Origin: Syntrophales bacterium
GTDB lineage: Bacteria > Desulfobacterota > Syntrophia > Syntrophales > UBA2210
Assembly: GCA_963666365.2 (NCBI GenBank)
Contig: CAXXNF010000002.1
Span: 1,984,001-2,048,000, forward strand
Reading direction: 5' to 3'
Length of the DNA stretch: 64,000 bases
A model generated the notes under the pieces. That model ran no database searches. It was not told the DNA's origin and worked only from the letters and a program-made list of their open reading frames with translations. The number at the start of each line of letters is the position of its first letter. The stretch's first letter is position 1. Below, piece after piece: positions 11,067 through 31,868 of the stretch. The position numbers and the translations under genes were made by a program.

Positions 11067-11294
11067 ATGTGCATCGGATTCCCCGGAAAAATCATCGAGA
11101 TTGATGATAACAGGGCGATCATCGAAATAAGCGGGGTGACCCGTGAAATCTGGCTCGATCTCGTGCCCGAGGAGGTGTCCATAGGAGATTATGTCATCTG
11201 CCATGCGGGATTCGCCATTCATCGAATAGACAATGAGGCAGCGCAGGAAAAATTGAGTCTCTTTCAAGATATTATCGACAATGAATTATATTGA
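11067..11294 (+). CDS. hypC: Hydrogenase chaperone HypC
   Basis: MCIGFPGKI, GDYVICHAGFAI. Confidence 0.95.
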   Translation: MCIGFPGKIIEIDDNRAIIEISGVTREIWLDLVPEEVSIGDYVICHAGFAIHRIDNEAAQEKLSLFQDIIDNELY

Positions 11295-12378: not shown

Positions 12379-12386
12379 CATAAGCG

Positions 12387-13049: not shown

Positions 13050-15317
13050 AATTATAAGAACCCGTTTTCTTTTTACGGGAACCGTCCAGGGGGTGGGGTT
13101 TCGTCCGTTCGTATACAGGATCGCCACAGCTCATAGACTTGCTGGTTTCGTAAGAAACAGTTCCGAAGGCGTGATTGTTGAGGTTGAAGGACCCGAAGGA
13201 AGAATGGAGGACTTCCTTTGCGACATGGACAAAACACCCCCCCCTGGCTCGAATTGACGGTGTAAAAAAGCCGGATCGCACTTCGCGGCGACGACTCCTT
13301 TCACATAATAGAAAGCGCCGCCACCGGCGTCCCGTCGGTCCATATCACTGCCGATACCGCCACCTGTGATGCCTGTCTCAAAGAACTCTTCGACCCCACC
13401 GACCGACGCTATCGCTATCCCTTCATCAATTGCACCAACTGCGGTCCCCGGCTTACCATCATCAGGGGCATCCCCTATGACCGTGAAAATACTTCCATGG
13501 CCTCTTTTCCTCTATGCCCTCGCTGCCGCAAAGAATATACTGATCCGGCAGACAGGCGTTTTCACGCAGAGCCGAACGCCTGTCCCGACTGCGGCCCCCA
13601 TCTGGAATTTCTCGACGCCCAGGGGACTCCTTGCGTAACTGCCGATCCAGTGGAAGAGGCGTTCAAGATCCTCTCTTCCGGCCGCATCCTTGCACTGAAA
13701 GGGCTGGGGGGGGTTCATCTTGCCTGCGACGCGATCAATGATGAGGCAGTAAGGCGTCTCAGAACACGTAAATTTCGAGAAGAAAAACCTCTGGCCGTGA
13801 TGGTGCAAGACAGTGCGGCCGCTGCGTCTTTCGTCGTTCTGAGCGAGCCGGAACGTATGCGTCTCCCCTCTCCGGAACGCCCCATCGTTATCGCAAGACA
13901 AAAGAGCGGCGTCCCACTTGCGCCATCAGTGGCCCCGGGAATGAACACCCTGGGAATTATGCTCCCCTATACGCCGCTCCATCATCTATTACTGGCCGGT
14001 CCTTTCAAGGCCCTCGTCATGACAAGCGGCAATCGAACCGACGAACCGATCGCGATCGAAAACGGCGAGGCCGTCACAAGGCTTGCGGGAATCGCCGATC
14101 GATTCCTTCTGCACAACCGGGACATCCTTGTCCGCTGCGACGACTCAATCGTAATGGAGATGGCAGGAAGGACAGTTATGGTAAGTCGTTCCCGAGGATT
14201 CGCGCCCCGTGCCGTCGAATTGCGGAAAGACTTCCCTCCCGTACTCGCACTGGGAGGCCATATGAAGACCACGATCTGTGTGACAAAAGACCGCTATGCC
14301 TTTTTCAGTCCCCATATAGGGGATATGGACACGCCCCAGGCGCGCGACTTCCATCGCGAAAGCATCGCACTGATGGAAAAGATTACCCGCTGCACACCCC
14401 GAATTATCGCCTGCGACTGTCATCCCGGCTACTACACCTCCCGTATGGCACACGAAATGAAGGATGTAGCGGTAGTGGAAGTCCAGCACCACCATGCCCA
14501 TATTGTGAGCTGCATGGCCGAAAGAGGGCTCACCGGACAGGTCATCGGCCTCGCCATGGACGGAACCGGCTACGGTACTGACGGCCATGTATGGGGTGGC
14601 GAATTTCTCTGTGCCGACGAAAGAAACTTCACGCGACTGGGCCATTTCACACATCTCCCCCTGCCCGGCGGAGAGGCGGCGGTGCGCGAACCCTGGAGAT
14701 GCGCCGCAAGTCTGCTGAAACACGCCTTTGGTAATGTATGGTCTGCCGTTGCGAAGCAACTGAATCCGTCCCTGCCTGAAAACGCCCTTTTGATGATCGA
14801 CCGGATGATGACAGAAGCCATCCAGTGTCCCCTCACTTCAAGCCTGGGACGGCTCTTTGAGGGCATAGCCGCGCTCATCGGTCTCCGCCAGAAGGCAAGT
14901 TTCGAGGGACAGGCGCCGATGGAGCTGGAAGCACTGGCCGAAAGGGGAAATCCCCGTCCCCTCCCCTTTGCAACGGCCGTCGAGGGGGATATCACCATAA
15001 TAGATATCGCGCCGGCAATTCGCGAGCTTGTGGCAAAGCGCACTGAAGGCTGCGAACCAGCGGATCTTGCCGCATCTTTCCTACAGATGGCAGTCGAGAT
15101 ATTTCTCGCACTGTCGCGGGAAATACGGCACAAGACAGGCCTCAACCGGGTCGTTCTGAGCGGGGGCTGTTTTCAGAACCGGAATCTGGTGGAAAGGACC
15201 GTCTCGGTTCTCGAAAAGTCGGGGTTCGATGTCTACACCCACTCACTGGTACCTCCCAATGACGGGGGGCTCGCTTTGGGACAGGCCGTTGTGGCCGCTG
15301 CAAAAGCGGAACAGTAA
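13015..15317 (+). pseudogene. hypF: hypF carbamoyltransferase with two frameshifts near 13237-13269; start approximate
   Basis: GTVQGVGFRPFVY in one frame, PPLARID in a second, CDAC...YPFINCTNCGPR...QHHHAH...PPNDGG in a third; shifts map to C8 and A6 runs. Confidence 0.85.
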
Positions 15318-15342
15318 AAATAATCTCGCGCTGAGCCGCCGA

Positions 15343-15390
15343 GACGCTGAGGATAAGAGAAAAAAAGTTTTTTCTCTTATCCCCTGCGTC
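15343..15390. repeat. Long intergenic inverted repeat between hypF and hypE
   Basis: GGATAAGAGAAAAAA/TTTTTTCTCTTATCC (15 bp perfect) with outer GACGC/GCGTC. Confidence 0.7.
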
Positions 15391-15435
15391 CCTGCGGGAA
15401 ATAAAATATATAAACGCGACATGAGGTAAGAGGCA

Positions 15436-16446
15436 ATGAATCACGATACCATTCTTCTCGAACACGGGGGCGGCGGTCTTCTTTCCAACACATTGATCGC
15501 CGAAACCTTTCTTCCCCTTTTTAACAATGCCTACCTGGAGCAGCTCAGAGACGGCGCCGTTTTCGATATAGGTACCAAGCGTGTCTGCTTTTCCACTGAT
15601 TCCTACGTGATCAACCCGATCTTTTTCCCGGGAGGGGATATCGGATCACTGGCCGTTCACGGCACCGTCAATGATATCGCCATGTGCGGCGGGAAACCGC
15701 TCTTTTTGAGTGCCGGCTTCATTCTTGAGGAAGGGTTTCCCATGACGGATCTCAAGAAAATTACGCAGTCCATGGCAGAGGCTGCGCATAAGGCGGGAGT
15801 CATGATCGTCACGGGCGACACCAAAGTGGTGACCCGGGGCGCCGCCGACGGCCTTTTCATCAACACATCGGGATTAGGGATCGTGGCATATCCGCAGACA
15901 CTTTCGCCTCAGGCAATAGAACCGAACGACGTGATCATCATAAACGGTACCATCGGTGATCACGGTGGTGCCGTGCTCAGCAGCCGGGAGAGGCTTCAAT
16001 TCAGCGCGCCGCTCTATTCCGATTCAGCCCCTCTGAACAGGCTTGTGGAAGAGATTCTCAGAGCAAGTCCCCGTATTAACTGCATGCGCGACGCCACACG
16101 AGGTGGACTCGGCGCTATTCTCGCCGAACTTGCAGGTCAATCCAACCGCGAACTGCGTATCGACGAGGCAGCGATACCCGTGAAAGATGAGATCAGGGGT
16201 CTTTGCGAAATACTCTGGTTCGACCCGCTCTATCTCGCCAATGAGGGGAAGATGGTAATTTTTGCAGCACCGGAAGAGGACGCCCGCATTTTACAGATCA
16301 TGAAACAACACACATACGGAAAAGATGCCGCCGTTATCGGTCACGTCGGGAAAAAAAACAGGGGACGGGTCATCATGAAAACGCTCATAGGCGGCTTCAG
16401 GGAAATCGATCTCCCCACAGGGGAACTGGCGCCCAGAATCTGTTAA
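15436..16446 (+). CDS. hypE: Hydrogenase maturation protein HypE
   Basis: HGGGG, FFPGGDIGSLAVHGTVND, MRDATRGG, C-terminal PRIC. Confidence 0.96.
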   Translation: MNHDTILLEHGGGGLLSNTLIAETFLPLFNNAYLEQLRDGAVFDIGTKRVCFSTDSYVINPIFFPGGDIGSLAVHGTVNDIAMCGGKPLFLSAGFILEEGFPMTDLKKITQSMAEAAHKAGVMIVTGDTKVVTRGAADGLFINTSGLGIVAYPQTLSPQAIEPNDVIIINGTIGDHGGAVLSSRERLQFSAPLYSDSAPLNRLVEEILRASPRINCMRDATRGGLGAILAELAGQSNRELRIDEAAIPVKDEIRGLCEILWFDPLYLANEGKMVIFAAPEEDARILQIMKQHTYGKDAAVIGHVGKKNRGRVIMKTLIGGFREIDLPTGELAPRIC

Positions 16447-18525: not shown

Positions 18526-18833
18526 ATCTCCCTTTTACCAAGAATATATGGTTGCAGAGTTGTAAAACAACGAAACGAGGTCAATGGCTACATATCAATT
18601 GAAATAGCGATTCGCTGTGTCAAGGTATGCTACCCTAAATACCGGAAAAGTAAAAGGTGTTTTTATTTTATGCACTTCTGCCTTTGCCTATGACGCCTGT
18701 TTTTGATACGTTTAGAAAGTTTTTCTGTCTGGGCGGACAATAAATGTCCGAATATTTAAAAAGAGAACCTGCTCCATTCATTTAATCGAAATGCCGGGGT
18801 TTCTATATTTTAAAATCACAAGGAGTATACTTA

Positions 18834-19394
18834 ATGAAAGTGATCGGTGCAATCGGCCAAAACGGTTCGGGAAAAGACGAAGTGCTGAAATATCTAAAAA
18901 CCGCCTACGGCATCCCCTTTTTTTCAACCGGCGACATGGTGAGAGAAATTGCCGCGAAGCAAGGTGTCGAACCCACGAGAGAACACCTTCGCAACATTTC
19001 CGAACGATATTTCCGCGAGAAAGGCGAGGGATGTTTTGTCAGGCTTCTGGCCGAACGTATCGCAAAAGAAGCGCCTCCTGTTGTAGGAATAAGCGGAATA
19101 CGATCGCTTACGGACGTAACGATTCTGCGCGACAGATTCGGAGCGAATTTTATCCTGATTGAGGTAACCGTCGAGGATCCGAAACTTCGCTACTCGCGCA
19201 TGGTCGCAAGGGCCGAAGAACGGGACCCCACAAGTTACGAGCAATTTCTTGCCCAGGATAAGGCAGAGGAAGAACTTTTCCACCTGGGTGCGGCAGGACG
19301 CAATGCCGATCACCGCATTGGTAATGACGGAACCCTGGCCGATCTCCAAAAAGTCATAGATACGCTGGTTAATCAGAAAGATATCCTTCGTTAA
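18834..19394 (+). CDS. P-loop nucleotide kinase, dephospho-CoA-kinase-like
   Basis: GQNGSGKD, STGDMVRE, GIRS, AD..I.NDGTL. Confidence 0.75.
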   Translation: MKVIGAIGQNGSGKDEVLKYLKTAYGIPFFSTGDMVREIAAKQGVEPTREHLRNISERYFREKGEGCFVRLLAERIAKEAPPVVGISGIRSLTDVTILRDRFGANFILIEVTVEDPKLRYSRMVARAEERDPTSYEQFLAQDKAEEELFHLGAAGRNADHRIGNDGTLADLQKVIDTLVNQKDILR

Positions 19395-19422
19395 GAAGAG
19401 GGAAAGGGTCCTCGCATAAAAC

Positions 19423-19466
19423 TCGTCGCCCCTCGCTTCCTTTCGAAAGGAAGCGGGGGGCGACGA
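19423..19466. terminator. Long hairpin between convergent genes
   Basis: TCGTCGCCCCTCGCTTCCTTT-CG-AAAGGAAGCGGGGGGCGACGA. Confidence 0.7.
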
Positions 19467-19494
19467 TAATATTTTGATATTTAACACCTTTTTA

Positions 19495-22482
19495 TCAGAA
19501 ATGGAATGCATCCCTGAAGATGAGGTATGCCAGCACTAACCCAAAAAGCGTAGCGGCGATTCCCATAATGCCGGCAAGCAGGCGAGTCCTCACGCTGGGC
19601 GCCCTGCGTATCAGCGTTTCCAGGCGATTTTCCGCAATGATCCGCTCGTACTCTTCCGGTCGTTCCTCCTTGAGCGCTGCCACACTATACCGTCCGGTAA
19701 AAATATTCGATTCCATGGGGAATTTGTTCGGCACCAGATGATTATGAAAGTAGTGGACCGTGAAAATGAAGACGGCCGCCAGGAACGCTTCCTCTGAGTG
19801 GGCAACCGTGGCCACGTTGATCATCCACCCTGGCAGGATGTAGGAGAACAACTCCGGGAACCAGAGGATAAGACCCGACATACCGATCACGAACATTCCC
19901 CAGAAAACGGCGAAGAAGTCGAACTTCTCCCAGTAGGTCCAGCGCTCGAAGCGAGGCATCTCCCCCCTGTTGAAGAACCATCGGAACATCCCCTTGAGAT
20001 CAAGCCAGTCCTTCAGGTTAAAGAAAAGTGATTCCGGCCCGAAGAGACGTCCCAGCCATCCGCGGACCCTTCCGTTCGGGAAGAGGAACTTCACGCTTCT
20101 CCAGCATGTGTATATAAAGAGCACCCACAACACAGTGGCGGCTGCGCGGTGCCAGAATCCGGCCATCTCAACCCCGCCCAGCATATTGATGAAGAATTTC
20201 GCCGTTACCGTTTCATGGTATTTAAGCGGGAAGCCAGTAATGACAAGCATAAAAAATGAGATCATCAGGAGAAAATGCATGATGCGATCTCGCCAGGAAA
20301 AACGCTGCACATAGGTAGTCATATCCCCTGAACAGGGCTCTTCCCATTCCATCAAGTGCACACCTCTGCCCGTCCATTTCTTCCAATAGGCCTTCCTCCA
20401 CCAGAGGATAGTATGCACCCAGAAAAAGGCAAACACAAAAATAAGAAGTCCGATCATGAATATATTGGTCCAGAACAATGCAGGATTGTGTTCGGGATCG
20501 CTGTAATCCGGATGAGCTTCATACTTGACGAACCGTGCATGAAATCCACTGTGGCATTGTGCGCAGTCCTTCATAAGATCGCTTTCGTGCACAGTTGATC
20601 GAGGATCCGATGAAGGCAGGATATTGTGGCCGTTATGGCAATCGGCACACCCGGCTACCCGCTCGGCAGTTCCCACGTCAAAAACCTTGCCATGAAATGT
20701 TTCGTGATACAAATCGGCCGCCGAAATTGACATGTTGTTGCGCTTTACCAGTTCCTCATCGCCGTGACAGCTGATGCACGCGACTGTGTATGCCTCCTTT
20801 TCCTGCGCGCGGCCTTCCTTGGTTCCCCTGTCATAAAACGGCGTGTCATGAAGCCCGTGACAATCGGCACAGGAAGCCGCATCCTCATTCCCCTTGAGAA
20901 CGGCGTTACCGTGTCCGTTGCGCACATAGCGGTCCTTTTCGTGACAAGCGGTACAGCGGTTGATTACCGCAGTCTTTGTTCCCCCGTCTTCCTTTTTCCG
21001 AACGTGCGCATCGCTATGACAATCAAGACAGGTTTTCCCCGCCTTGAGGGCGTGCATGTCGTTTTCATATTGCAAGGCGATATCCTTATGGCAGCTCGCA
21101 CAGGCGGTAAGACCCGGCTTCTTCTCCTTTTTCATGTGAGCCGCCACGTCATCTATCCCGGTGTGGCAGGTTGTGCAGGCAAGGATGCCGTGGACCGACT
21201 GTGCGAACCTATCGACGTATTGCGCATCGTTGTGACAGGTAGCGCATTGTATGAGGGCTTCCGCGGTTTTCTTTTCCGCCGGTACCGTCTCCCCGCCCTT
21301 CATCTCTTTTGCCATCGCCGGCTTTGCCGCCGCCTCCGTCTTTGCCGGCTTTACCATCGGCGACGGGATGACGAAATCGAACTCGTGGCACTGGTGACAA
21401 AAGTTCTCCGACGGCTTGTGGGCGTGATGGCAGAGATCGCAGTCCAGCTCGGGGCCGTAATGGGAGTTATGCGGATTGGCCTCTTTGACGTCCTTTGTCG
21501 CCTCAACGAGATCTTCGGGCTTATGACAGGTAAGGCAGTGACTCGTGCCCACGAACTTCGGGGGATCGGTCTCGCCGTGACACCCGGCGCAGGAGACCCC
21601 GCCTAAGAGGTGGCTGTGGCTCAGGGGGAGCACGCTGGTCAGCTTCGGATCGTCTTCCTTATGGCAGGCCATGCACTGGGCGAGATCCATCCCCTTCGTG
21701 TCGGGGTGCGTCCCGGGAATCATGGCCTCCTTGTGACAGGCGGCACAGTCTCCACCCCTCGCTGCTGCTGAGGGCGCCGTCTCGGGAGCGGGTGCGATTG
21801 CGGCAATCGTCTTTTCCTCAGAGGCCTTTTCCTGACCGACCGTTACAGCCGCCGGCGCAGTCTTCTTCGATTCTTCACCCTTCGAGGGCTCTTTCGCCGC
21901 AGGCGCCTCTTTCTTCGCGGGCGCTACCATCGGCGACGGGATGACGAAATCGAACTCGTGGCACTGGTGACAAAAGTTCTCCGACGGCTTGTGGGCGTGA
22001 TGGCAGAGATCGCAGTCCAGCTCGGGGCCGTAATGGGAGTTATGCGGATTGGCCTCTTTGACGTCCTTTGTCGCCTCAACGAGATCTTCGGGCTTATGAC
22101 AGGTAAGGCAGTGACTCGTGCCCACGAACTTCGGGGGATCGGTCTCGCCGTGACACCCGGCGCAGGAGACCCCGCCTAAGAGGTGGCTGTGGCTCAGGGG
22201 GAGCACGCTGGTCAGCTTCGGATCGTCTTCCTTATGGCAGGCCATGCACTGGCCGAGATCCATTCCCTTCGTGTCGGGATGCGCCTCGGGCACCATGGTA
22301 TTCCCCTCATGGCACAGTGCACATTCCCCGCCTTTTGCAGTCGGCACTGCTTCGGGTTCCGCCGAGAGTGCAGTCTTTGAATCGGCGCTGCAGAAAATGA
22401 AAAAAAGACACGCAACGAGGAAAGGGATGATGCTTCTGCGGCTCCGGATTGGAAACTCACGCATATGTGGGTTTGGCTTCAT
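19495..22482 (-). CDS. 21-heme cytochrome c fused to a cytochrome b membrane domain (two hexaheme modules plus CbcL-like 9-heme/cyt b part)
   Basis: Signal-like N-terminus, 21 CxxCH counted (6+6+9), Pro/Ala/Lys/Glu linkers, C-terminal TM helices with RIMH, FWHR, WEKFDFFAVFWG, AHSEEA. Confidence 0.9.
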   Translation of the reverse strand: MKPNPHMREFPIRSRRSIIPFLVACLFFIFCSADSKTALSAEPEAVPTAKGGECALCHEGNTMVPEAHPDTKGMDLGQCMACHKEDDPKLTSVLPLSHSHLLGGVSCAGCHGETDPPKFVGTSHCLTCHKPEDLVEATKDVKEANPHNSHYGPELDCDLCHHAHKPSENFCHQCHEFDFVIPSPMVAPAKKEAPAAKEPSKGEESKKTAPAAVTVGQEKASEEKTIAAIAPAPETAPSAAARGGDCAACHKEAMIPGTHPDTKGMDLAQCMACHKEDDPKLTSVLPLSHSHLLGGVSCAGCHGETDPPKFVGTSHCLTCHKPEDLVEATKDVKEANPHNSHYGPELDCDLCHHAHKPSENFCHQCHEFDFVIPSPMVKPAKTEAAAKPAMAKEMKGGETVPAEKKTAEALIQCATCHNDAQYVDRFAQSVHGILACTTCHTGIDDVAAHMKKEKKPGLTACASCHKDIALQYENDMHALKAGKTCLDCHSDAHVRKKEDGGTKTAVINRCTACHEKDRYVRNGHGNAVLKGNEDAASCADCHGLHDTPFYDRGTKEGRAQEKEAYTVACISCHGDEELVKRNNMSISAADLYHETFHGKVFDVGTAERVAGCADCHNGHNILPSSDPRSTVHESDLMKDCAQCHSGFHARFVKYEAHPDYSDPEHNPALFWTNIFMIGLLIFVFAFFWVHTILWWRKAYWKKWTGRGVHLMEWEEPCSGDMTTYVQRFSWRDRIMHFLLMISFFMLVITGFPLKYHETVTAKFFINMLGGVEMAGFWHRAAATVLWVLFIYTCWRSVKFLFPNGRVRGWLGRLFGPESLFFNLKDWLDLKGMFRWFFNRGEMPRFERWTYWEKFDFFAVFWGMFVIGMSGLILWFPELFSYILPGWMINVATVAHSEEAFLAAVFIFTVHYFHNHLVPNKFPMESNIFTGRYSVAALKEERPEEYERIIAENRLETLIRRAPSVRTRLLAGIMGIAATLFGLVLAYLIFRDAFHF
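21352..22252. repeat. 328-bp direct repeat (21352-21679 and 21925-22252), 573-bp period
   Basis: Copies read identical by eye; similarity continues about 30 bp further with mismatches. Confidence 0.92.
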
Positions 22483-22626
22483 ACTTCCCCCTGATCGGAT
22501 TCGGCAGTGCAACTCGCGATACTACCCATATTAAAAACCTACCGGCTGCCGCCGCGTGGTGGCATATGTCCCTCTCCACCCCGCGACGGCTTCGGTTAAC
22601 CACACAATCAGTTGCTCTTCCCGCCG

Positions 22627-24159
22627 TTATACTTTCGCGGCGGCACTCTGGCCGGCAATGCGTCCGAAGACGATGCAATCGAGCACGGCGCAGCTTCCCA
22701 GACGCACGGCGCCGTGGACACCGCCGGTAATCTCACCGGCCGCGTAAAGTCCCGGGATGGGTTTACGATCAAGCCCGATAACCTGCGCCTTCGTATTTAT
22801 CTGAATGCCGCCCATGGTATGATGCACCTTGGGCCAGGCGCGACATCCATAGAACGGAGGCGTTACCATCGGTTTCTGGTCGGTCTGCAGATATCGGCCG
22901 AATTCCTCATCCTTGCCCTGTTTCACATACTTGTTCCACTTGTTTATCGTTTCCTTGACTGTGTCCACCGGAATCTTATATTCGGCGGCCAAGGCCTCGA
23001 TGGTGTCGAACTTCTTCGCCACGCCCTTTGCCAGGATCTTGTCGAGGATGGGAACCCGTTTGACCCCTTCACTGTCTGCAATGGTAATGGCCGGATGTCC
23101 CGTCCTGATAATGGCATCGGCACGGATCTTTCGGTCTGCCAATTCATTGATGAAGCGCTTCCCCGTTTGCGGATCCACCATGACACCATAGACAAAACCG
23201 GCTATGGCGTTGAAGACATAGCCGATGCCCATGCCTTTCTCGTCGGGACTGGTCCAGGGACCGAGCTGTATCCAGGAAATCTGCACGGGCGTCGCGCCTG
23301 ACCTGAGCGCATCCATGAGCACCTCTCCCGTTGCCCCGGGCTGATTGGTGGAATCCACATCGGCCGTCAGCTTCGGATCCTGGATCGTTCTGAAATAGAG
23401 ATCCCTGCCGAAACCGCCAGAGGCGAGCACGAGCCCCTTGTTGGCCTTCAGATATTTTACCGTGCCGGTGCTCTCATCGGGGAAGCGGTAGCCTTCTCTG
23501 ATCTTCAGGCCGGCAACCTTCCCGTCCTTATCCTGGATGATGGACATGACATAGGCCTGCATCCTCACCTCGACACCAAGGCCCTTTACCTTCTCCAGCT
23601 CCTTCATTACGATGGCCGATCCGCTGCTGTTGTAGGTCGAATAGCTGCGGGGGACCGAATGGCCGCCCAGATGGGTTACCCGGTCCTTGTACTTGACGCC
23701 CAGCATCTCCGTCCATTCCGCTGCTTCCCGCGACTTTTCCGCAATCATCCTGGCCAGATCCACATGATTGAGGTAGAGCCCGGCCTTCAACATATCCTTC
23801 AGCAGCAGTTCCGGCGAATCCTTGATCCCTTCCGCCTCCTGCTTCGGTGATCCCGCCACGGCAAAGACGCCGCCGTTGATGATGGAGTTCCCTCCGGGAA
23901 CACGCATTTTCTCAAGAACCACGGTCGAAGCGCCCGCCTGCTTCGCCTCGATGGCCGCAGCCAGACCGGCGAACCCGCTGCCGACCACCACCACATCGAA
24001 CTCCTCGTCCCATTTGGCGGGCATGTCGGCGCCATAGGCCTTAAGAGGACCGGCAAGCAGGGAACCGGCTGCCACACCGGCCAGCGCGGCGCCACCTGTG
24101 GTCTTCATGAACCCTCTTCGCGTCAAACCCTCAGCTACATTGTTTTTTTCATCTTTCAT
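22627..24159 (-). CDS. Tat-exported flavocytochrome c flavin subunit (fumarate reductase superfamily), copy 2
   Basis: TRRGFMK, VVGSGFAG, GGNSIINGG, IQLGPW, VHHTMGG, GAVRLGSCA; no CxxCH; RBS AAGGAG before ATG 24159. Confidence 0.92.
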   Translation of the reverse strand: MKDEKNNVAEGLTRRGFMKTTGGAALAGVAAGSLLAGPLKAYGADMPAKWDEEFDVVVVGSGFAGLAAAIEAKQAGASTVVLEKMRVPGGNSIINGGVFAVAGSPKQEAEGIKDSPELLLKDMLKAGLYLNHVDLARMIAEKSREAAEWTEMLGVKYKDRVTHLGGHSVPRSYSTYNSSGSAIVMKELEKVKGLGVEVRMQAYVMSIIQDKDGKVAGLKIREGYRFPDESTGTVKYLKANKGLVLASGGFGRDLYFRTIQDPKLTADVDSTNQPGATGEVLMDALRSGATPVQISWIQLGPWTSPDEKGMGIGYVFNAIAGFVYGVMVDPQTGKRFINELADRKIRADAIIRTGHPAITIADSEGVKRVPILDKILAKGVAKKFDTIEALAAEYKIPVDTVKETINKWNKYVKQGKDEEFGRYLQTDQKPMVTPPFYGCRAWPKVHHTMGGIQINTKAQVIGLDRKPIPGLYAAGEITGGVHGAVRLGSCAVLDCIVFGRIAGQSAAAKV

Positions 24160-24198
24160 ACCCAATCTCCTTTGTTTCTATAGTGAACACTTGTATTG

Positions 24199-24226
24199 AT
24201 TGTAAAACAATACCAATGCAAGTCAA
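24199..24226 (-). promoter_or_regulatory. Putative internal sigma70 promoter
   Basis: TTGACT-N16-TACAAT about 40 nt upstream of the start codon. Confidence 0.5.
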
Positions 24227-24456
24227 GGGCGCAGAGCCGAGTATTTTCCCTACTTTAGACGCTGAAAAGACTATTTTTTCACACTCCAAATACTGATAGG
24301 TCCTCTCCATGTGCAGCGATGCCCGCTCATCAGTGCATAGGCAGGGGCAATTCAGGCCCACACTATGCAGGGCCAATGCGATGTGCGGCAAAAAATAATC
24401 CTTTTCCGCCGCATTCCGCATCCTCATTTCAACCCAAGTCCTGTGGCGCGGCTTTT

Positions 24457-26007
24457 TTACAGGGCAGCCGCATTCTTGCCCGCAATACGTCCGAAGACCA
24501 GACAATCCACCACGGCACAACTGCCGAGGCGCACCGCTCCGTGAACGCCGCCGGCCACTTCGCCGGCCGCATAAAGCCCCTTGATCGGAGCACCGTCCAC
24601 ATCGATCACCTCTGCCTTGTCATTGATCTGCACACCGCCCATGGTATGGTGCACCTTCGGCCAGAGTCTGACGGCATAAAAGGGAGAAGTCGCAATCGGT
24701 TTGGCGTCGGGCTGGAGGAATCGTCCGAATTCCTTGTCCATTCCCGTCTTCAGATATGAGTTGTAGTCGTCGACGGTCTTTTTGACAGCCGCAAAGGGTA
24801 TTTCATAGGCCGCGGCCAGTGCCTCGAGGGTATCAAATTTTTTGACGACGCCACGCTCCAGGAGTTTTTTCACTGCACCGGGAGGACCTCCGCACTTTTT
24901 CGATCCCTCTTCGTCGGAGATACCGATCGCCGCATGACCGGTTCTGATGATGGCGTCGGCCCGAATTTTGCGATTTGCAAGCTCACTGATGAAGCGCTTT
25001 CCCGTTGCGGGATCCACCATGACACCGTAGCTGAAAACCGGACCCGTTGCGAAATGGGGCGCCAGCCCGAAGCCCTTTTCGTCAGGACTTGCCCAGGGAC
25101 CGAGCTGAATCCAGGAGGGCTGCACGGGATTCGCGCCAAGCCTGAAAAGCTCCTTGAGCCCTTCGGCGGTGGCGCCCGGCTGATTCGTGGAATTGACCTT
25201 GGCTATGAGCTTTGGATCCTGCGTCATTCTGTAGTGCACGTCCTGAGAAAATCCGCCCGTTGCCATCACAAGACCCTTCTTTGTGCGGATCGTCTTGACA
25301 GCGCCGCTCTTTTCATCGGGAAAGCGATACCCTTCCCGTATCTGGATACCGGCAATACGCCCATCCTTGTCTCTGAATATTCTTTCCAGATAGGCCTGCG
25401 TAACGATGGGCACACCCAGCTCCTTTAGTTTGGCCGCTTCCTTCATGACAATGCCCGAACCGCTGTAGTTCGAAGTGGGGCAGCTTCTAGCCACGGCATG
25501 ACCCCCCATATGGAGAAGCTGCGCCGCTTTTCCGAATTTGACGTCAAGATGCTCCTTGCACCAATTGTATGCGTCCCTGGATTGATAGGCCACCATTTTT
25601 GCCAGCTCGGGGTAGTTCAAGTACAGTCCGGCCTTCATCATGTCTTCCAGCATCAGCTCCGGAGAATCCTTAATCCCTCTCTCATCCTGCATATCGGATC
25701 CGGCCACGGCCATGACGCCACCGTTAATAATTGAATTGCCTCCATTCACGCGCATTTTCTCATAGACCGCAACCGACGCGCCCGCCTCCTTGGCCTCGAT
25801 TGCCGCGGCAAGCCCTGCAAAACCGCTGCCGATGACGGCCACATCGATTTCCTCGTCCCATTTCTGGGGCATCTCGGCGCTGAACGCCTTTGACGGACCG
25901 GCCAGCAATCCACCGGCGGCAACGCCGCCAAGGGCGACAGTGCCCGTTGTTTTGAGGAACCCTCTACGGGTCAAACCCTCATTTTTTGGTAATGTATCTT
26001 TCGCCAT
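24457..26007 (-). CDS. Tat-exported flavocytochrome c flavin subunit, copy 1
   Basis: TRRGFLK, IGSGFAG, IQLGPWASPDEKG, VHHTMGG, GAVRLGSCA; paralog of the neighbour. Confidence 0.92.
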   Translation of the reverse strand: MAKDTLPKNEGLTRRGFLKTTGTVALGGVAAGGLLAGPSKAFSAEMPQKWDEEIDVAVIGSGFAGLAAAIEAKEAGASVAVYEKMRVNGGNSIINGGVMAVAGSDMQDERGIKDSPELMLEDMMKAGLYLNYPELAKMVAYQSRDAYNWCKEHLDVKFGKAAQLLHMGGHAVARSCPTSNYSGSGIVMKEAAKLKELGVPIVTQAYLERIFRDKDGRIAGIQIREGYRFPDEKSGAVKTIRTKKGLVMATGGFSQDVHYRMTQDPKLIAKVNSTNQPGATAEGLKELFRLGANPVQPSWIQLGPWASPDEKGFGLAPHFATGPVFSYGVMVDPATGKRFISELANRKIRADAIIRTGHAAIGISDEEGSKKCGGPPGAVKKLLERGVVKKFDTLEALAAAYEIPFAAVKKTVDDYNSYLKTGMDKEFGRFLQPDAKPIATSPFYAVRLWPKVHHTMGGVQINDKAEVIDVDGAPIKGLYAAGEVAGGVHGAVRLGSCAVVDCLVFGRIAGKNAAAL

Positions 26008-26139
26008 ATTAAACCTCCTTGTTAAGGTAATAATGAAATGTAATCGGCGCCACTAAACCCTGAGGACTTCGTCGCGCACTATTGAAGCACCCCGAGAGCA
26101 TAATTCGGGATTCTTTTACCTTTGTGAGAGAACTTTTCC

Positions 26140-26157
26140 TTATGAAAGCATTCACAA
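26140..26157. promoter_or_regulatory. Rex-like operator
   Basis: TTATGAA-AGCA-TTCACAA, one mismatch from TTGTGAA-N4-TTCACAA. Confidence 0.55.
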
Positions 26158-26245
26158 ACTTTCATTTTTCTCAGACTACTTTTGGTGCAATTTGTAAGAA
26201 CTCTGAATCGAAAATATCAGAGCGCATAGTAGAGGACAGACCGGA

Positions 26246-26380
26246 AATGAATTACCCCGCCGCAAGCTACGGGGGAATTAGCCCACAGGAAATAAATCAC
26301 ATTGGGGTTTTTACTCCTCGCCCCTTGGGACATTCAATGCTTTTAAAGATACCCCGCTGCTTGCGGCGGGGCAATTCATT
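26246..26380. mobile_element. 135-bp non-autonomous element (MITE/REPIN-like) with hairpin-bearing inverted ends
   Basis: 30-bp terminal inverted repeats (26/30 match), each containing CCCCGCCGCAAGC(TA/AG)CGGGG; no transposase. Confidence 0.65.
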
Positions 26381-26520
26381 ATCAAAACGGTTTATTATGA
26401 TAAAAACTATCTTTCAAGTCAAGCATTTTCCTTTGACTTTTAGTCTGCTGTGTGTTGCTTCGATTACATTATGAGGGAAATTGTGGGAAATAACACCAGT
26501 GAAACGCTCAGGCTTTACCT

Positions 26521-27144
26521 TTAATGCCCTTCCTTATTGTCGTACCCAGTAATCATGGCGCTGAAATTTGCAACAACTGTGTGGCCGGTGGTGGCAAGGT
26601 AGATGTGCGCTATAAAAAACAAGCAGAAAATAGCTGCCATAATATAGTGGAACACCGCCACGGTCGCTAATCCACCGACAGACGCCACCAGGGGCTCGAA
26701 AAAGGAGGGATAGAGGTATATGATACCGCTGATCAACAGGAGCGGCATCATGATGAACATAAACATAAAATACGTTGCTTTCTGCAACGGATTAAACTTG
26801 TTGTCTTCCGACGGATTATAGGGATGGGGCCTGTTTTTGAAAATATCATACAGATAAAATCGCGCCTGCACGATCATGCCCGGATGAATATCTTCTTTTC
26901 TCATCACATAATGCGAAATCCTCTTTGAAATCAAATTATAAGCCAACCAGAAAACAAAATCGGCAACGAGCACCCATCCCAACCAGTTATGCAGTGAAAG
27001 CGCATTTGAAAAGCTTCCAAAAATATTAACGCTGTCCGGCCAGTGCATCTGGATACCTGTTAAAATAAGCAATAATATTAAAAGTGCATGAATCCAATGC
27101 CATATGCGCTCGGCGATCGGATGCAGATATATTTTCTCTGACAT
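26521..27144 (-). CDS. Cytochrome b membrane subunit (PhsC/FdnI-like)
   Basis: ERIWHW, LHNW, KFNPLQK, FHY, AHIYLATTG. Confidence 0.9.
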   Translation of the reverse strand: MSEKIYLHPIAERIWHWIHALLILLLILTGIQMHWPDSVNIFGSFSNALSLHNWLGWVLVADFVFWLAYNLISKRISHYVMRKEDIHPGMIVQARFYLYDIFKNRPHPYNPSEDNKFNPLQKATYFMFMFIMMPLLLISGIIYLYPSFFEPLVASVGGLATVAVFHYIMAAIFCLFFIAHIYLATTGHTVVANFSAMITGYDNKEGH

Positions 27145-27148
27145 GTTC

Positions 27149-28912
27149 TTATTTTCTCCTCTTGCCGGTAAATCTCAATGCTCCGTGCACTGCACATCCC
27201 ACAAGCGTAAGAAGCGCCAGCAAAATTACAACGACGTCGAGAGCCGGAATTCTATTGCTGCCCACCACATAATTCCCTTTTTCAATAAGCCCGGCGTTGG
27301 TAAATTTCCAATTGGCCAGCGAATAATCCGGTTTTCCTTCAGCCTCTTTCAAGAGAATCGTGTTGTATGTATGACAAAGCTGACAATCGTCAACGGGAGC
27401 TGCCATTGAAGGATCGTGACATACGAGACAATCGGTTTTTTTCAGGTGAAGCTTCGGCTGTTCCAGCCAGTTATGCCGCACGGATGGAGCGGGCTTTAAC
27501 GTAACGAACACATCTTTGTTTGCATCGATTTCCCACGATTCGGCAGCATCCTTTTCCGTCAGAAACAGTTCATCCTTTCCGTGACAGGAAAGGCACGTTT
27601 CGTTTTGTGGGGTCTTCAGTTGAATGCTATGCGGCGTTGCATATTTCCATGTTTGCACTTTGCCCACTTCAGTCAGGGCGTCCTTCACGTAAAAATCAAA
27701 GAGATCCGGACTTACGGGAATATGTCGAACCGTCACATATTGCTCAGGCCGGTCTTCGCTCATTTTCGGATTCATTCCGATTTTGAAGCCCACCTTTGAC
27801 GGCTTTGTTTTAAAATAGGGAGCACCTGATGCGTCTTTACCCACATGACAACTATAACAGTGTTTATAAGGCATCGCGTGACATACTTGACAACTCACCT
27901 TGTCTTTGTGAATCATATGGCTCGGATGTACACGCTCTTTCGCTTCACTTTCGTCTTGCGCCGCTTCATCTTCAGAACCTGCCAATTTATGACACTTTTC
28001 GCACCTTGACCCGTCTGCAACGTCATATCTGTCAAAGGTCTCATGGCTCATGCCGTTTCCGTGCATTTCATCACCGGAATGGCAATCCATACATGACATA
28101 CATTTATCAATACGGTGCACATCACCCTGCACACCCTTATTCTGGCCGTAGAATTCCTTGCCTACCCTGCTTCCGTGACAGGAGGTGCAATTTGTTTCAA
28201 CAGGAGGAGTTTTCTGAAAAATGTGGCCTTCTACGAATCCGCCTTCGACGGAATTGGGACGGCTTACGTGACATTGACCGCAACTGCTGTGACACTTCAT
28301 ACAGTGCGTTTCCATGGCGCAGTCTATTTTTTCACGTACCGATGGATCCGCATTTGCCCTTAGATAAATTTTGTTTTTAAACGGGGCAAGCGTTACATGC
28401 AGATTTGTTTTGTTTTTTTCTGCAATTTCCGGATGTCCCTCTTCATCGTCTACGAAGTGGCACTCGCCGCACTTCTGCACAGGATCGGGATAGGAAGGAT
28501 CTCTCATCAGACCTTCATGTGCCGTCTCATAATCATCGCTTTCAGGATCGCCACCATGGCACTGTTCACAGGATATCTGCCCATGGACATCATCGTCGAT
28601 GAAATCAGAGTCAACCAGCACTTTTTCGTATGGCTCCAACTGAGCCACAGCTCCGCCTCACCCTTCGCCTTCCGATTCAGCGGACTTTTTCTGCTGAGGA
28701 TTTTTCGCTGCAATCTCTTTTGTAATTCTTACCAGCTCTTTCACACTTGTATGGCATGAGACGCAGCCGCTTTCCTCGGCACTAACCATCTGCCCCGCAC
28801 CAAGAAAAACAACAACAAAGATGGCAGCAACAATAACAAAAAGTTCTGACGTGTACCGCGCACACATTATTTTGTGTGCAGAAACCCCTCTGTAAACAAT
28901 GCGTTCTTTCAT
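27149..28912 (-). CDS. Predicted selenocysteine-containing 13-heme cytochrome c, 587 aa (joins track ORFs 28658..28912 and 27149..28648)
   Basis: TGA 28658-28660 is in frame with the downstream ORF (SEGEG-U-GGAVAQLEPYEK); upstream part gives the signal-like hydrophobic segment and 1 CxxCH, downstream part 12 CxxCH and a C-terminal TM; SECIS-like hairpin follows. Confidence 0.85.
28629..28649 (-). promoter_or_regulatory. SECIS-like hairpin of the multiheme cytochrome
   Basis: UGUGGCUC-AGUUG-GAGCCAUA; loop 16 nt after UGA, G at loop position 2. Confidence 0.75.
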
Positions 28913-29167
28913 AACGCCCTAACACATATCAAAAACCGCTGTACGGGTAAAGGTTTTTTTACTCACAGTTACTTGAAAAAGACAGACCTCCCAAATTTCG
29001 GCTTCCAATCCTGGAATCTAGTGCCTGCCCATCGAAGGTTCCTGCATGAAAGCAAGGCCTATGCATAACTCCTGTATTTTGTACCCGCTGTGATTTTACT
29101 TTTTTTAAAAAACATGTTATGGATTGCAGGTAGTGAAAGAAATCTTATTTTTGGAGGTAAAGCTATT

Positions 29168-29614
29168 ATGCGTAATCAGATGGTTTTTAGGAAAGGTCTT
29201 ATCATTTCCATTGCCGTGATTTTAGTGCTCTCATTGTCCGGATATTGTCTGGCGGACAAGACCAGCAAGGATTTTGTAAATGAAGCGAAAAAAACGGTGA
29301 AAGAAATCTCCGTCGCCGATGCAAAGGCAGAAATAGATTCGGGAAAAGTGGCAATAATTCTCGACTGCAGAACGGAGAAGGAGTTTAAAAAAGGACATAT
29401 TCCTAAAGCAATGAATATTCCTCGCGGTCTTCTGGAATTCAAAATTGAAAAGAAAATACCGAAGAAAGACGCCTACATAATTTGTTACTGCGTATCAGGC
29501 GGCCGTTCCTGTCTTGCCTGCAGCACCATGAAAGAGATGGGATATTCAAACTTGAAAAGCATGGCGGGCGGATGGAAGGCATGGGTCAAAGCCGGTTATC
29601 CGATAGAGGAATAA
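29168..29614 (+). CDS. Exported single-domain rhodanese/sulfurtransferase
   Basis: Signal peptide, LDCRT..EF..GHIP.A.NIPRG.LE, active loop CVSGGR, GGWKAW; RBS GGAGG. Confidence 0.9.
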   Translation: MRNQMVFRKGLIISIAVILVLSLSGYCLADKTSKDFVNEAKKTVKEISVADAKAEIDSGKVAIILDCRTEKEFKKGHIPKAMNIPRGLLEFKIEKKIPKKDAYIICYCVSGGRSCLACSTMKEMGYSNLKSMAGGWKAWVKAGYPIEE

Positions 29615-29703: not shown

Positions 29704-30546
29704 TTACATGTAACTGTGCAAACCCGAAAGTATGTAATTTACCCCGAGATAAGTAAAAATCACGGCAAAAAAACCGAGAATGGCAATACAGGCCATGATG
29801 GTTCCCTTCCATCCCTTTACCAGGCGGGCGTGGAGATAGGCGCCGTAAATCATCCAGGTGATGAGCGACCAGGTCTCTTTCGGATCCCACCCCCAATACC
29901 TTCCCCAGGCAGTATCGGCCCAGGCTGCACCAGTAATTATTCCCAGACTCAGTAAAACAAAACCGATTGAGGTTATTCGATAGGCCAGATCGTCCCACAT
30001 CGCGGCATCCGCGAGAAGTGCCGTAATTCTCGGTCCTCCCTTCACTCTGATCAAATAGAGTATGCTGGTGATGAACGAAAGAGCAAAACAGGCATAGGCA
30101 AGAAAGGAACTCACCACGTGACTGATGAGCCAATTACTTCTTAATGCGGGTATAAGAGGCTGAATTTCCGTGCTCACACTGCCGGAAAGCGACGCATAGG
30201 CCGGCAGCAAAAAGGCCAGGAAGGATGCCAGTATTCCGATACTTTCATTACCGTAACGTCTCCACATTATCAGCAATACGAGCATTACTGACCAGGAAAA
30301 AAAGACGAGCGATTCGTAGAGATTGGAAAGAGGTGCATGCCCGATTTCCAGTTGATACGAAATTGCCCAGCGCAGAATAATCGCAAACGTTTCTATGGAA
30401 AATCCGCTTGCCACCAGGATCAGTGCCAATACACGGATGACCTTTTTTTTAAAAACAAAGGCAGTAAAGAAGAAAAGAGTTCCAAAAAAATAAAGAAATG
30501 TTGCAATACTTACAAAAAATGTATCGTTCATACCAGTATCAATCAT
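29704..30546 (-). CDS. System II cytochrome c synthase subunit (CcsA/ResC family)
   Basis: GHAPLSNLYESL, WLISHV, WWD domain WADTAWGRYWGWDPKETW, C-terminal LHSY. Confidence 0.95.
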   Translation of the reverse strand: MIDTGMNDTFFVSIATFLYFFGTLFFFTAFVFKKKVIRVLALILVASGFSIETFAIILRWAISYQLEIGHAPLSNLYESLVFFSWSVMLVLLIMWRRYGNESIGILASFLAFLLPAYASLSGSVSTEIQPLIPALRSNWLISHVVSSFLAYACFALSFITSILYLIRVKGGPRITALLADAAMWDDLAYRITSIGFVLLSLGIITGAAWADTAWGRYWGWDPKETWSLITWMIYGAYLHARLVKGWKGTIMACIAILGFFAVIFTYLGVNYILSGLHSYM

Positions 30547-31868
30547 TGTTGTAGTTTATTAAGATGCTTTGCAAGAATTTTCTCGAAGTTGCCGTCGCGT
30601 TTTCTGTCTGTTTTCGCTGCAACTTCAACATATGATCCTTCGCCGGACGGCGTAATCCGTATCGACAGACACCGGTGCGACCCAAAGAGCACAATTACAA
30701 AACCGATGAGAATCAGGGCAAACCCACTCCATACCACGGGCATTCCCGGATTTTTGCTTATCTGTATGCCCGTGTAGTAGCGAGCGGTAAAATCTTCCAG
30801 TGCAAAGATATACTCTCCCCGTTCTACTTCCTGAGACCGGTGCCTCTGAAATGGTATCCAGAAAATATCGTGACTCATCCCCGGCACAAGCATCACACCC
30901 AATACTGCCGCCCCCTGTCCTTGAAAATCCGGCACAAACCGTGCAACGGCAAAGGAAGAGTCGCTTCCCGGCAATGGCACTTTTCGCATCCGATGGAGTG
31001 TAAGCACCGATCTGGTGCCGCTTTTCTTTTCCGTAACGGCGACTTTGAAATCGGAAGCATCGGCCATTCCATATGAAGCCTGACATAGTTTGTATCCCCG
31101 AAAGACAATGGGATGATTTACTCGTATCGATTCCTCCGCCACAGACGCACCCTCATCAATGATCGTTACATCGGATCGGTATTCTTTCGGCATACCACTG
31201 TCGTAAAATTCAACGGAAAAACGATTGCATCGTACCGAAAAGGGCAGCGTCATTTCTTTGGTTCCCGGAGAAACAAGAACCTTGCTCGAGGTTTCTCCCT
31301 CGACAATCGTCATTTGGCCTTCAAAACCGCCGACTGCACCTATGAGACCGCCGGCCAGAATTATCAGAATGCTCACATGAACGAACAGGATACCAAGCCG
31401 CGCATAGGCACCTTTTTCCGCATAAAGGTATCGCACGTCACGCTCACCTTTCACATTCGGCTTCCCGACAAGCGCTTTTACCAACATTCGCAGATTGCCT
31501 TCTATGCGTTCCCCTCTATCGTGCATTTCGAACTTATGTTGTATCGGCCACCCGCAAAAGGCCGCATCGCTCTTATCACCCCGCTTCCGAAACAGCGGGG
31601 CGCAAATTCCCGGAAGCGTTTTCGCCGTACAGGCAATGAGGTTAACTGCCAAAAGCGCCAGGAGAACGGTGAACCACCAGGAATGGTACATGTCTGAAAT
31701 ATCGAAAAACTCAATAAGAGAAACCGTACCCGGTCCATAGACATTCTCATAGTGGTCCTTTGGGAGCCCCTGTGCTACCAAAGTGCCGAACACGGAGGTT
31801 GCGGCCAGCGCAAAAAAAAGGAATATGGTAAGTTTTGCCGAAGCAAGTCCCTTGATAACTTTTTTCAT
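30543..31868 (-). CDS. System II cytochrome c biogenesis protein (ResB/Ccs1 family)
   Basis: GTLVAQ, DMYHSWWF, VHVS, IRVNHP, YTGIQISKNPG. Confidence 0.93.
   Translation of the reverse strand: MKKVIKGLASAKLTIFLFFALAATSVFGTLVAQGLPKDHYENVYGPGTVSLIEFFDISDMYHSWWFTVLLALLAVNLIACTAKTLPGICAPLFRKRGDKSDAAFCGWPIQHKFEMHDRGERIEGNLRMLVKALVGKPNVKGERDVRYLYAEKGAYARLGILFVHVSILIILAGGLIGAVGGFEGQMTIVEGETSSKVLVSPGTKEMTLPFSVRCNRFSVEFYDSGMPKEYRSDVTIIDEGASVAEESIRVNHPIVFRGYKLCQASYGMADASDFKVAVTEKKSGTRSVLTLHRMRKVPLPGSDSSFAVARFVPDFQGQGAAVLGVMLVPGMSHDIFWIPFQRHRSQEVERGEYIFALEDFTARYYTGIQISKNPGMPVVWSGFALILIGFVIVLFGSHRCLSIRITPSGEGSYVEVAAKTDRKRDGNFEKILAKHLNKLQQ

Follow-up and report, generated by a model that had tools for sequence, protein, structure and literature searches.

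A 64,000-nucleotide (nt) stretch of the genome of a Syntrophales bacterium (GenBank assembly GCA_963666365.2, contig CAXXNF010000002.1, positions 1,984,001 to 2,048,000), called the window below, carries on its minus strand the three consecutive genes that are the subject of this analysis, two encoding flavoproteins and one encoding a 21-heme c-type cytochrome fused to a cytochrome b (Table 1). The probable start codon of the cytochrome's open reading frame (ORF) is the ATG at residue 11 (window 22482); it has GGGGGAAG 5 nt upstream and gives a protein of 995 residues. It contains exactly 21 CXXCH motifs in a 6+6+9 arrangement: those of the two hexaheme modules, A and A', are at residues 64, 89, 117, 135, 167, 181 and 256, 280, 308, 326, 358, 372, respectively, and those of the nine-heme part at residues 423...650; a motif scan of the translation found no CX3CH or CX4CH. 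The modules are followed by linkers composed of 80% (linker 1, over residues 187-255) and 71% (linker 2, over residues 378-422) P/A/K/E/T/S/G, and a linker similar to the second is present in P0007, a one-module relative. A first-pass annotation, made from the DNA letters alone, had read the polypeptide in this way, as 6+6+9 hemes with linkers and a cytochrome b domain, and the motif scan, the hydropathy profile and the structural match of the b domain given below confirm it.

Table 1. Positions of the three-gene unit, its domains and its borders in the window.
Feature	Position	Strand	Basis or remark
513-nt intergenic region, presumed promoter region of the three-gene unit	26008..26520	-	5' of flavoprotein 1
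Flavoprotein 1 (516 aa), twin-arginine translocation (Tat) signal, heme-less flavin adenine dinucleotide (FAD) enzyme of the flavocytochrome c family	24457..26007	-	PF00890, 236 bits
Flavoprotein 2 (512-aa ORF, probable ATG start 24159), Tat signal, heme-less FAD enzyme	22627..24165	-	PF00890, 238 bits
21-heme c/cytochrome b fusion ORF	19495-22512	-	translation, 1005 aa
Hydrophobic signal-like segment, N-terminus of the 21-heme protein (residues 27-45)			hydropathy
Hexaheme module A (residues 56-195)	21928..22347	-	six CXXCH; PF14537 full-length at residues 110-186
Linker 1 (~residues 196-246), rich in Pro/Ala/Lys/Glu, heme-free	21775..21927	-	
Hexaheme module A' (residues 247-387)	21352..21774	-	91% identical to A (blastp)
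Linker 2 (~residues 388-417)	21262..21351	-	
Nine-heme domain (residues 418-665)	20518..21261	-	nine CXXCH; PF14522, PF22113, PF22678
FdnI/HydC-like cytochrome b membrane domain (residues 666-1005)	19495..20517	-	hydropathy, TIGR01583, Foldseek
20-bp-stem hairpin, possible terminator	19423..19466		where the cytochrome gene and its plus-strand neighbor converge

The nine-heme part, whose Pfam matches are to c7, MtrC-domain and NrfB-like families, is 44-66% identical to that of its relatives and leads directly into the b domain, which has six hydrophobic segments or predicted helices (residues 684-999). The match of the b domain to the FdnI family is weak (TIGR01583, 32 bits, below the cut-off of 115.85), and PF01292 was not found in the 21-heme query at E ≤ 0.01, although it is precomputed for many homologs. 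The AlphaFold2 (AF2) model of this domain, with a predicted local distance difference test score (pLDDT) of ~80-90, has a single significant Foldseek match in the PDB, the FdnI subunit of Escherichia coli formate dehydrogenase-N (1kqf_C, E 7e-4, TMt 0.67). His746, His788, His905, His920 and His925 are invariant among 35 aligned sequences, and we infer that some of them are ligands of the b hemes. CbcL has been described with this same order of parts, nine c-type hemes and then a HydC/FdnI-like b domain of six helices (PMC6295460), so that the likeness, also pointed out by the first-pass annotation, holds; in the same source, Syntrophus homologs cluster with Geobacter CbcL. A nine-heme paralog elsewhere in the genome is 51% identical to the core of the 21-heme protein, and the tree of this core separates module-bearing from nine-heme forms with 2 changes. 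The full-length AF2 model has a mean pLDDT of 59.7, with module A and both linkers below 50. Since the single module of relatives aligns to A' and not to A, module A lacks alignment depth, and the low values are thus silent on the flexibility of the linkers.

The two proteins encoded directly upstream are heme-less Tat flavoproteins, as had been annotated. Both exceed the cut-off of the 'flavocytochrome c' family TIGR01813 (451 bits for flavoprotein 1 and 487 for flavoprotein 2, cut-off 285.45), are covered by PF00890 over their full length, carry twin-arginine motifs (TRRGFLK and TRRGFMK, respectively) and have no CXXCH; they are 65% identical to each other. A tatC gene lies in the same window at 53173-53805 on the minus strand (region 53065-53847). 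Their nearest structurally solved relatives are the flavocytochromes c3 of Shewanella and urocanate reductase: flavoprotein 1 matches 6t85 with 260 bits, and flavoprotein 2 (P0002) matches the flavin domains of the Fcc3 type with 234-259 bits.

When flavoprotein 2 is aligned with 1d4d, its Arg345, His448 and Arg488 correspond to Arg402, His504 and Arg545, and all three are invariant among 59 family members. The fumarate-specific His365 of 1d4d is replaced by Gly302, within a SWIQLGPW segment that is invariant or nearly so in the same set, and the 1d4d loop M375-R381 (MITEAVR) has no conserved counterpart, aligning across gaps with YVFNAIA of flavoprotein 2. His365 and Thr377 bind the second carboxylate of fumarate, and substrate choice is ascribed to the replacement of this His/Thr pair (PMC4427408; bioRxiv 10.1101/2024.02.11.579808). 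In Mrd from Geobacter AM-1, an enzyme that is inactive on fumarate, Trp stands in for the His and Val for the Thr/Ser (PMC4427408); in the ArdA-type enzymes the two residues are Gly and Tyr, and ArdAB reduces acrylate (bioRxiv 10.1101/2024.02.11.579808). A fumarate reductase of the Fcc3 type was considered and rejected: the catalytic Arg/His/Arg set is kept, but the second-carboxylate site formed by His365 and Thr377 is not. With His365 replaced, as reported for Mrd and the ArdA-type enzymes, both flavoproteins can be read as candidate 2-enoate reductases for a substrate other than fumarate. The variable substrate loop differs between them (YVFNAIAGF in flavoprotein 2, PHFATGPVF in flavoprotein 1), a hint that their substrates differ.

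This genome encodes four flavoproteins of the family in all. Two are found at a second locus (G000:C2:1380715-1385558; L057, 6215-11058), where they follow a gene for a PAS-LuxR regulator, a candidate sensor, with no cytochrome gene nearby; their identity to flavoprotein 2 is 54% and 52%. Of the two, the first lacks a signal peptide at any in-frame start and might be cytoplasmic or exported piggy-back with its neighbor, which has a Tat signal with the motif SRREFLK. The latter is the sister (100, starred) of the third flavoprotein of G254, a genome introduced below.

The link between the cytochrome and the flavoproteins lies in the hexaheme module. Its last four hemes (3-6) match the heme domain of flavocytochrome c3, a resemblance to flavocytochrome c tetraheme domains that the first-pass annotation had noticed: PF14537 (Cytochrom_c3_2) is matched over positions 2-79 of 79, and phmmer aligns these hemes with residues 14-93 of Fcc3 (E 8e-7), including the C-terminal CHxFDF..P motif that, in Fcc3, leads into the flavin domain. 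The module matches the Cgr1 family NF051471 weakly in its last hemes (30 bits, far below the 340-bit cut-off). By sequence comparison, it is a homolog of the free cytochromes, with 4 to 7 hemes, whose genes adjoin those of flavocytochrome-c-type flavoproteins. A profile of 11 modules, run against the contigs of one genome per species, gave 76 loci in other species, of which 73 hold 77 module-bearing ORFs, and a flavoprotein gene lies within 400 nt of 59 of these 77. The proportion is 9/13 for modules fused to nine hemes and a cytochrome b (11/13 within 3 kb), 13/17 for free hexaheme cytochromes (~170-280 residues) and 37/47 for free 4-, 5- or 7-heme proteins. For most free hexaheme cytochromes, the gene just upstream encodes a flavoprotein with 53-77% identity to those of the window. 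The records with free 4-, 5- or 7-heme proteins are labeled Sutterella, Duodenibacillus, Shewanella, Selenomonas and others.

Within the order (1.5-kb flanks), a flavoprotein gene flanks seven of the nine module-bearing CbcL-like genes versus two of the 21 module-less ones. One of these two exceptions is cut by a contig end (L018); in the other (L027), a separate module-like cytochrome and a flavoprotein are convergent with the nine-heme gene, which looks like the unfused state. The nine-heme paralogs of this genome and of G254 (L049, L050) have no flavoprotein neighbor. The fused versus free state of the module requires at least 2 changes in the module tree, and the flavoproteins beside fused cytochromes are polyphyletic, with at least 6 changes forced in the flavoprotein tree; together, these observations fit a socket that accepts different enzymes. 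In the 19-heme Syntrophus-labeled loci L038-L040, L083 (Syntrophus buswellii DM-2) and L124, a second unit on the other strand comprises a 239-residue, 7-heme cytochrome with a module-like C-terminal part and its own flavoprotein (37% identical), so that fused and free donors coexist there within a few kb.

Modules A and A' are offset by 573 nt. Their longest exact run measures 328 nt (21352-21679 = 21925-22252), and 382 of 396 nt are identical between 21331-21726 and 21904-22299, while the flanks of this core fall within 60-120 nt to 15-67% nucleotide identity per 60-nt block. The protein sequences of A and A' show no difference in hemes 2-6 or in the C-terminal FDFVIPSP motif. An unchanged core with strongly diverged edges is better explained by gene conversion within an older duplication than by a brand-new copy, and gene conversion would most simply have kept the core identical. 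The modules are sisters in the module tree (99/93, starred), and the nine-heme and b core nests, in the core tree, inside a starred clade of eight 15-heme proteins; this sisterhood and this nesting indicate that the second module arose in this lineage. The nearest relative, P0007, is 79% identical and has one module, with an N-terminal end that resembles A and a linker that resembles linker 2. On these comparisons, the second module is a young tandem duplication specific to this genome.

The duplication, which the first-pass annotation had taken from the assembled sequence, is supported by reads. In two runs of one sample, Logan contigs of 305 and 603 nt bridge the unique linker from one core to the other, and the unitig of the 328-nt core has a depth of 12.9, about double the 6.6-8.5 of its neighbors; as these runs are possibly the assembly's own source, they provide read support and not independent replication. 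A further run from another study (X3, organism B) contains a 305-nt contig identical to the module core (21375-21679) and nothing else of the stretch, which could come from a close relative with the same core or from carry-over. Apart from this, a 69,024-nt contig, apparently of the same organism (entries P0008, P0128, P0162), encodes a 620-residue cytochrome that begins at residue 386, a 453-residue flavoprotein 2 starting at Val60 and a full-length flavoprotein 1; the shortened versions could reflect an indel-ridden assembly or odd start calling.

The first-pass annotation had inferred two docking arms that feed two reductases (or a dimer). Module number, however, does not follow flavoprotein number, and a reading with one arm for each reductase is not supported. 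G229, from the same genus, and G254, from the same family, have orthologs of both flavoproteins (81-84% identity) beside a one-module cytochrome, and each encodes a third, distant family member behind its cytochrome. Each of the two window paralogs groups, in the flavoprotein tree, in a starred clade with its G229 and G254 counterparts (100 for flavoprotein 1, 99 for the other), which makes the flavoprotein pair older than the module duplication. More generally, one-module cytochromes adjoin one to three flavoprotein genes, some only one, and two modules stand here against the four flavoproteins of the genome. Being identical across hemes 2-6 and the C-terminal motif, the modules cannot tell partners apart; judged from this identity, they would be equivalent sockets and not arms dedicated to single enzymes.

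The fusion itself is widespread in its one-module form. Among the 120 best matches listed in a protein collection, sorted by CXXCH count, 75 have 9 motifs, one of them being the 620-residue version of the window's own protein; 20 have 15 (6+9), 14 have 19 (6+4+9, the extra four repeating the first four of the nine), 11 have other counts from 8 to 18, and none has 21. The one-module fusion thus accounts for 34 of these 120, is frequent in metagenome-assembled genomes labeled Syntrophales, Syntrophaceae or Syntrophus, and is annotated as 'cytochrome c3 family protein' or 'cytochrome b subunit of formate dehydrogenase'. Within the order, 127 of 339 genomes have a match at E ≤ 1e-50, the largest matching open frame in the 338 other genomes being 950 residues long. 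No other protein with two hexaheme modules was found in the 120 best matches, the 338 other genomes of the order or the 76 loci, and the module was not found elsewhere in this genome. Another class of 19-heme, CbcL-like proteins of 934 residues (L044-L047, in G275, G276, G277 and G302) has no flavoprotein-partner module, only repeats of the nine-heme type; in L044-L046, a stand-alone cytochrome b is encoded at a distance of a few kb.

In the literature, a 2018 census of CbcL homologs covers proteins with 3-23 motifs and 416-1034 residues (PMC6295460). Its supplementary file 2 lists as a CbcL homolog a 925-residue, 19-heme Syntrophus protein whose first six motifs are spaced as in the module; a 23-heme entry in the same file has a different spacing. 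The stem 'flavo' occurs nowhere in that paper, which makes no link to flavoproteins. Full-text literature searches, which did not extend to bioRxiv supplements, found no functional account of the fusion, and searches for a flavocytochrome in the Syntrophus and Smithella literature gave only an unrelated mention of a sulfide dehydrogenase. The fusion had been annotated as undescribed: this stands for its function in the full-text literature searched, and it does not stand for the protein as such, the one-module form being common and a 19-heme member having been listed in 2018. The interest lies in a recurrent fusion of syntrophic lineages, by which a flavoprotein-partner cytochrome is hard-wired to a CbcL-type quinol dehydrogenase, and in its unique two-module variant in the window.

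Several characterized systems share parts of this arrangement. Two marks of the two-subunit enoate reductases occur in the operon: a flavin subunit with a Tat signal and devoid of heme motifs, and, encoded next to it, a multiheme c partner that is related to the heme domain of Fcc3 and begins with a signal-like segment, but is fused here to a membrane protein. In ArdAB of Shewanella woodyi, likewise, a heme-less Tat FAD subunit is paired with a Sec-exported multiheme c subunit from the neighboring gene, on which its activity depends (bioRxiv 10.1101/2024.02.11.579808), and the fumarate His is a Gly, as in Gly302 (ArdA being compared by description). ArdB, however, is a free tetraheme cytochrome, whereas the partner here has six hemes, twice, and is joined to a quinol dehydrogenase. 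The Mrd/Mcc pair of Geobacter sulfurreducens AM-1 also combines, in one operon, a Tat flavoprotein (526 residues) and a Sec multiheme cytochrome, with the Arg/His/Arg set kept and the fumarate His and Thr replaced, and Mcc is the physiological donor of Mrd (PMC4427408); Mcc, unlike the cytochrome of the window, is a soluble protein of 231 residues, with reduction by the quinone pool left outside the operon. Fcc3/FccA and Ifc3 of Shewanella resemble the system in their flavin domain and in a tetraheme domain that aligns with module hemes 3-6, but there the cytochrome is fused to a soluble, fumarate-reducing flavoprotein, whereas here it is fused to a membrane protein, with separate flavoproteins that lack His365. 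CbcL of Geobacter sulfurreducens and the CbcL/MtrH/MtoC family, likened by layout, share the nine CXXCH and the six-helix b domain with conserved His; the window's protein differs in its twelve extra hemes, borne by two flavoprotein-partner modules, and in sharing an operon with reductases and not with extracellular-electron-transfer genes. The cardiac glycoside reductase Cgr1/Cgr2 of Eggerthella lenta reportedly pairs a membrane-associated multiheme cytochrome with a fumarate-reductase-like flavoprotein. The 21-heme protein is not a member of that family, given the NF051471 score cited above.

The flavoprotein linkage of the module, the precedents of ArdAB and Mrd/Mcc and the active-site pattern support a reading of the three genes as a membrane-anchored menaquinol:2-enoate reductase system, acting on an α,β-unsaturated carboxylate other than fumarate and provided with an equivalent second socket, and we consider this reading probable. 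The FdnI-like diheme b domain would oxidize menaquinol and pass electrons to the nine c-type hemes on the periplasmic side. From there, electrons would reach a hexaheme module held by its heme-free, Pro/Ala/Lys-rich linker; transfer between domains across the linkers would require that the module dock, transiently or stably, on the nine-heme domain for charging. The module would be the fused counterpart of the small Sec-exported cytochromes of the ArdB/Mcc type, donating to the Tat-exported flavoproteins; in Shewanella Fcc3, the tetraheme domain equivalent to its last four hemes abuts the FAD domain. A flavoprotein would bind the end of the module that resembles Fcc3 and reduce the C=C bond of its 2-enoate, and the second module would add a second, equivalent socket. 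The direction of electron flow, the physical docking and the substrate class are proposed here by analogy with ArdAB, Mrd/Mcc and Fcc3.

Some observations weigh against this assignment. The AF2 model of the module alone, computed without hemes (mean pLDDT 71.8), found no solved fold: its best Foldseek match is indeed Fcc3 (2b7s), but with a non-significant E of 4.3, and VIA-align gave none at Z ≥ 2, so that the likeness of the module to Fcc3 is one of sequence. Flavoprotein linkage is expressed in counts and not as a test, related genomes not being independent samples; no flavoprotein gene lies closer than 400 nt to 18 of the 77 module ORFs, 6 of these 18 being found within 1.6 kb of the start of their locus, mostly a contig end. 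The 19-heme fusions of G172, G175 and L083 lack a flavoprotein gene directly upstream and have a 7-heme cytochrome and a flavoprotein downstream instead. Finally, co-transcription of the flavoprotein 1, flavoprotein 2 and cytochrome genes is likely, yet the gaps within the operon measure ~297 and 144 nt and a promoter-like site precedes flavoprotein 2; another such site (26422-26394, 10/12 matches) lies upstream of flavoprotein 1. The counts of terminator-like and promoter-like sites in general are at chance level, not above those of shuffled sequences.

Other explanations bear either on the second module or on the function of the whole. An assembly artefact is one conceivable account of the second module, since assemblers mishandle perfect repeats such as the 328-nt one and the protein collection holds only the 620-residue version, from the 69,024-nt contig. 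We hold it to be highly improbable: the two copies differ at their N-terminal ends, their linkers are unlike, the reading frame is kept, the genome is assembled in 2 contigs, and the read-derived bridging contigs and doubled core depth agree with two copies. If the module is real, its duplication might be adaptive, giving an arm of its own to each flavoprotein of the operon or to each half of a dimer, as could be imagined from two modules and two flavoprotein genes in one operon, both flavoproteins keeping their catalytic residues and differing in their substrate loops. This is unlikely, because one-module cytochromes serve beside one to three flavoprotein genes, including both orthologs and a third flavoprotein in G229 and G254, because this genome has four flavoproteins, and because modules identical over hemes 2-6 and FDFVIPSP leave no place for specificity.

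The direction of electron flow could also be the reverse, the flavoproteins oxidizing a saturated periplasmic substrate like their ketosteroid-dehydrogenase relatives and the cytochrome feeding the menaquinone pool. The CbcL/MtrH/MtoC homologs have indeed been proposed as quinol oxidases or quinone reductases (PMC6295460), and the flavoproteins have weaker NCBIfam matches to 3-ketosteroid dehydrogenases and TcuA, all far below cut-offs; but the families and structures that they match best are reductases (flavocytochrome c, Fcc3, UrdA), the proton-donor Arg of these reductases is invariant and the characterized two-subunit relatives are terminal reductases, which makes the reverse direction improbable. 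We give as little credit to the idea that the extra hemes chiefly lengthen a periplasmic wire, or store charge, in the service of electron transfer out of the cell or between species, with the flavoproteins as side users, like Shewanella FccA. CbcL has been studied as a quinol oxidase of extracellular electron transfer (PMC6295460), FccA has been called moonlighting in electron transfer (bioRxiv 10.1101/2025.05.29.656830), and a 12-heme cytochrome and cytochrome b pair is encoded just upstream. The added module, however, is specifically of the flavoprotein-partner type and tracks flavoprotein genes, plain nine-heme paralogs lack such neighbors, and the ORF scan at 11-35 kb showed no porin-cytochrome genes.

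Around the three-gene unit, the ORF at 18924-19511 (minus strand), which overlaps the end of the cytochrome gene, was taken as spurious, as the opposite-strand ORF at 18834-19394 matches AAA_17. No Rfam match was found in window positions 18800-29200. Upstream of flavoprotein 1, a 29-nt inverted repeat (26246-26274 / 26352-26380), 90% complementary with arms 77 nt apart, could be an operator or a small structured element; each arm holds its own GC-rich hairpin, and an 18-nt pattern occurs only at those two genome sites. The pair directly upstream of the operon (26521-28648, minus strand) consists of a 12-CXXCH cytochrome (499-residue ORF, C-terminal hydrophobic tail), with no obvious signal at its called GTG start, and a separate 207-residue cytochrome b (PF01292, 97 bits). 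It looks like a split counterpart of a CbcL-like unit, and the orthologous operons of G229 and G254 have no such pair next to them. Nearby are also genes for ResB and CcsA-type cytochrome c assembly proteins (29704-31868, minus strand) and, at 11281-16446 on the plus strand, genes for hydrogenase maturation: hypD, a cobW/HypB-type GTPase gene, hypF and a HypE-like gene of the AIR-synthase family.

Two-subunit flavocytochrome c reductases, such as ArdAB and Mrd/Mcc, and CbcL-type quinol dehydrogenases were known, and the link to the quinone pool is usually a separate protein. Here, and in many genomes under the labels Syntrophales or Syntrophaceae, the quinol dehydrogenase contains the partner cytochrome in its own chain, so that a single operon appears to provide all that is needed to carry electrons from menaquinol to an organic acceptor. 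This distinct and recurrent architecture is masked by annotations such as 'cytochrome c3 family protein'. The duplicated module is, in addition, a clean natural example of how a multiheme cytochrome gains a module, and it bears signs of concerted evolution within one gene. More tentatively, the module may be a general socket for interchangeable flavoprotein reductases, which would allow respiration of several unsaturated acids from a single quinol dehydrogenase, and a duplication kept by conversion would then double the sockets for three or four competing reductases; we regard this extension as possible, though clearly less secure than the menaquinol:2-enoate reductase reading. Syntrophus buswellii uses cinnamate as an acceptor, a point on which our literature search gave nothing relevant. 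If the menaquinol:2-enoate reductase reading is right, syntrophic bacteria own a respiratory outlet for unsaturated acids, and, were the module a general socket as well, this would represent an organic electron sink in bacteria usually seen as obligate producers of hydrogen or formate.

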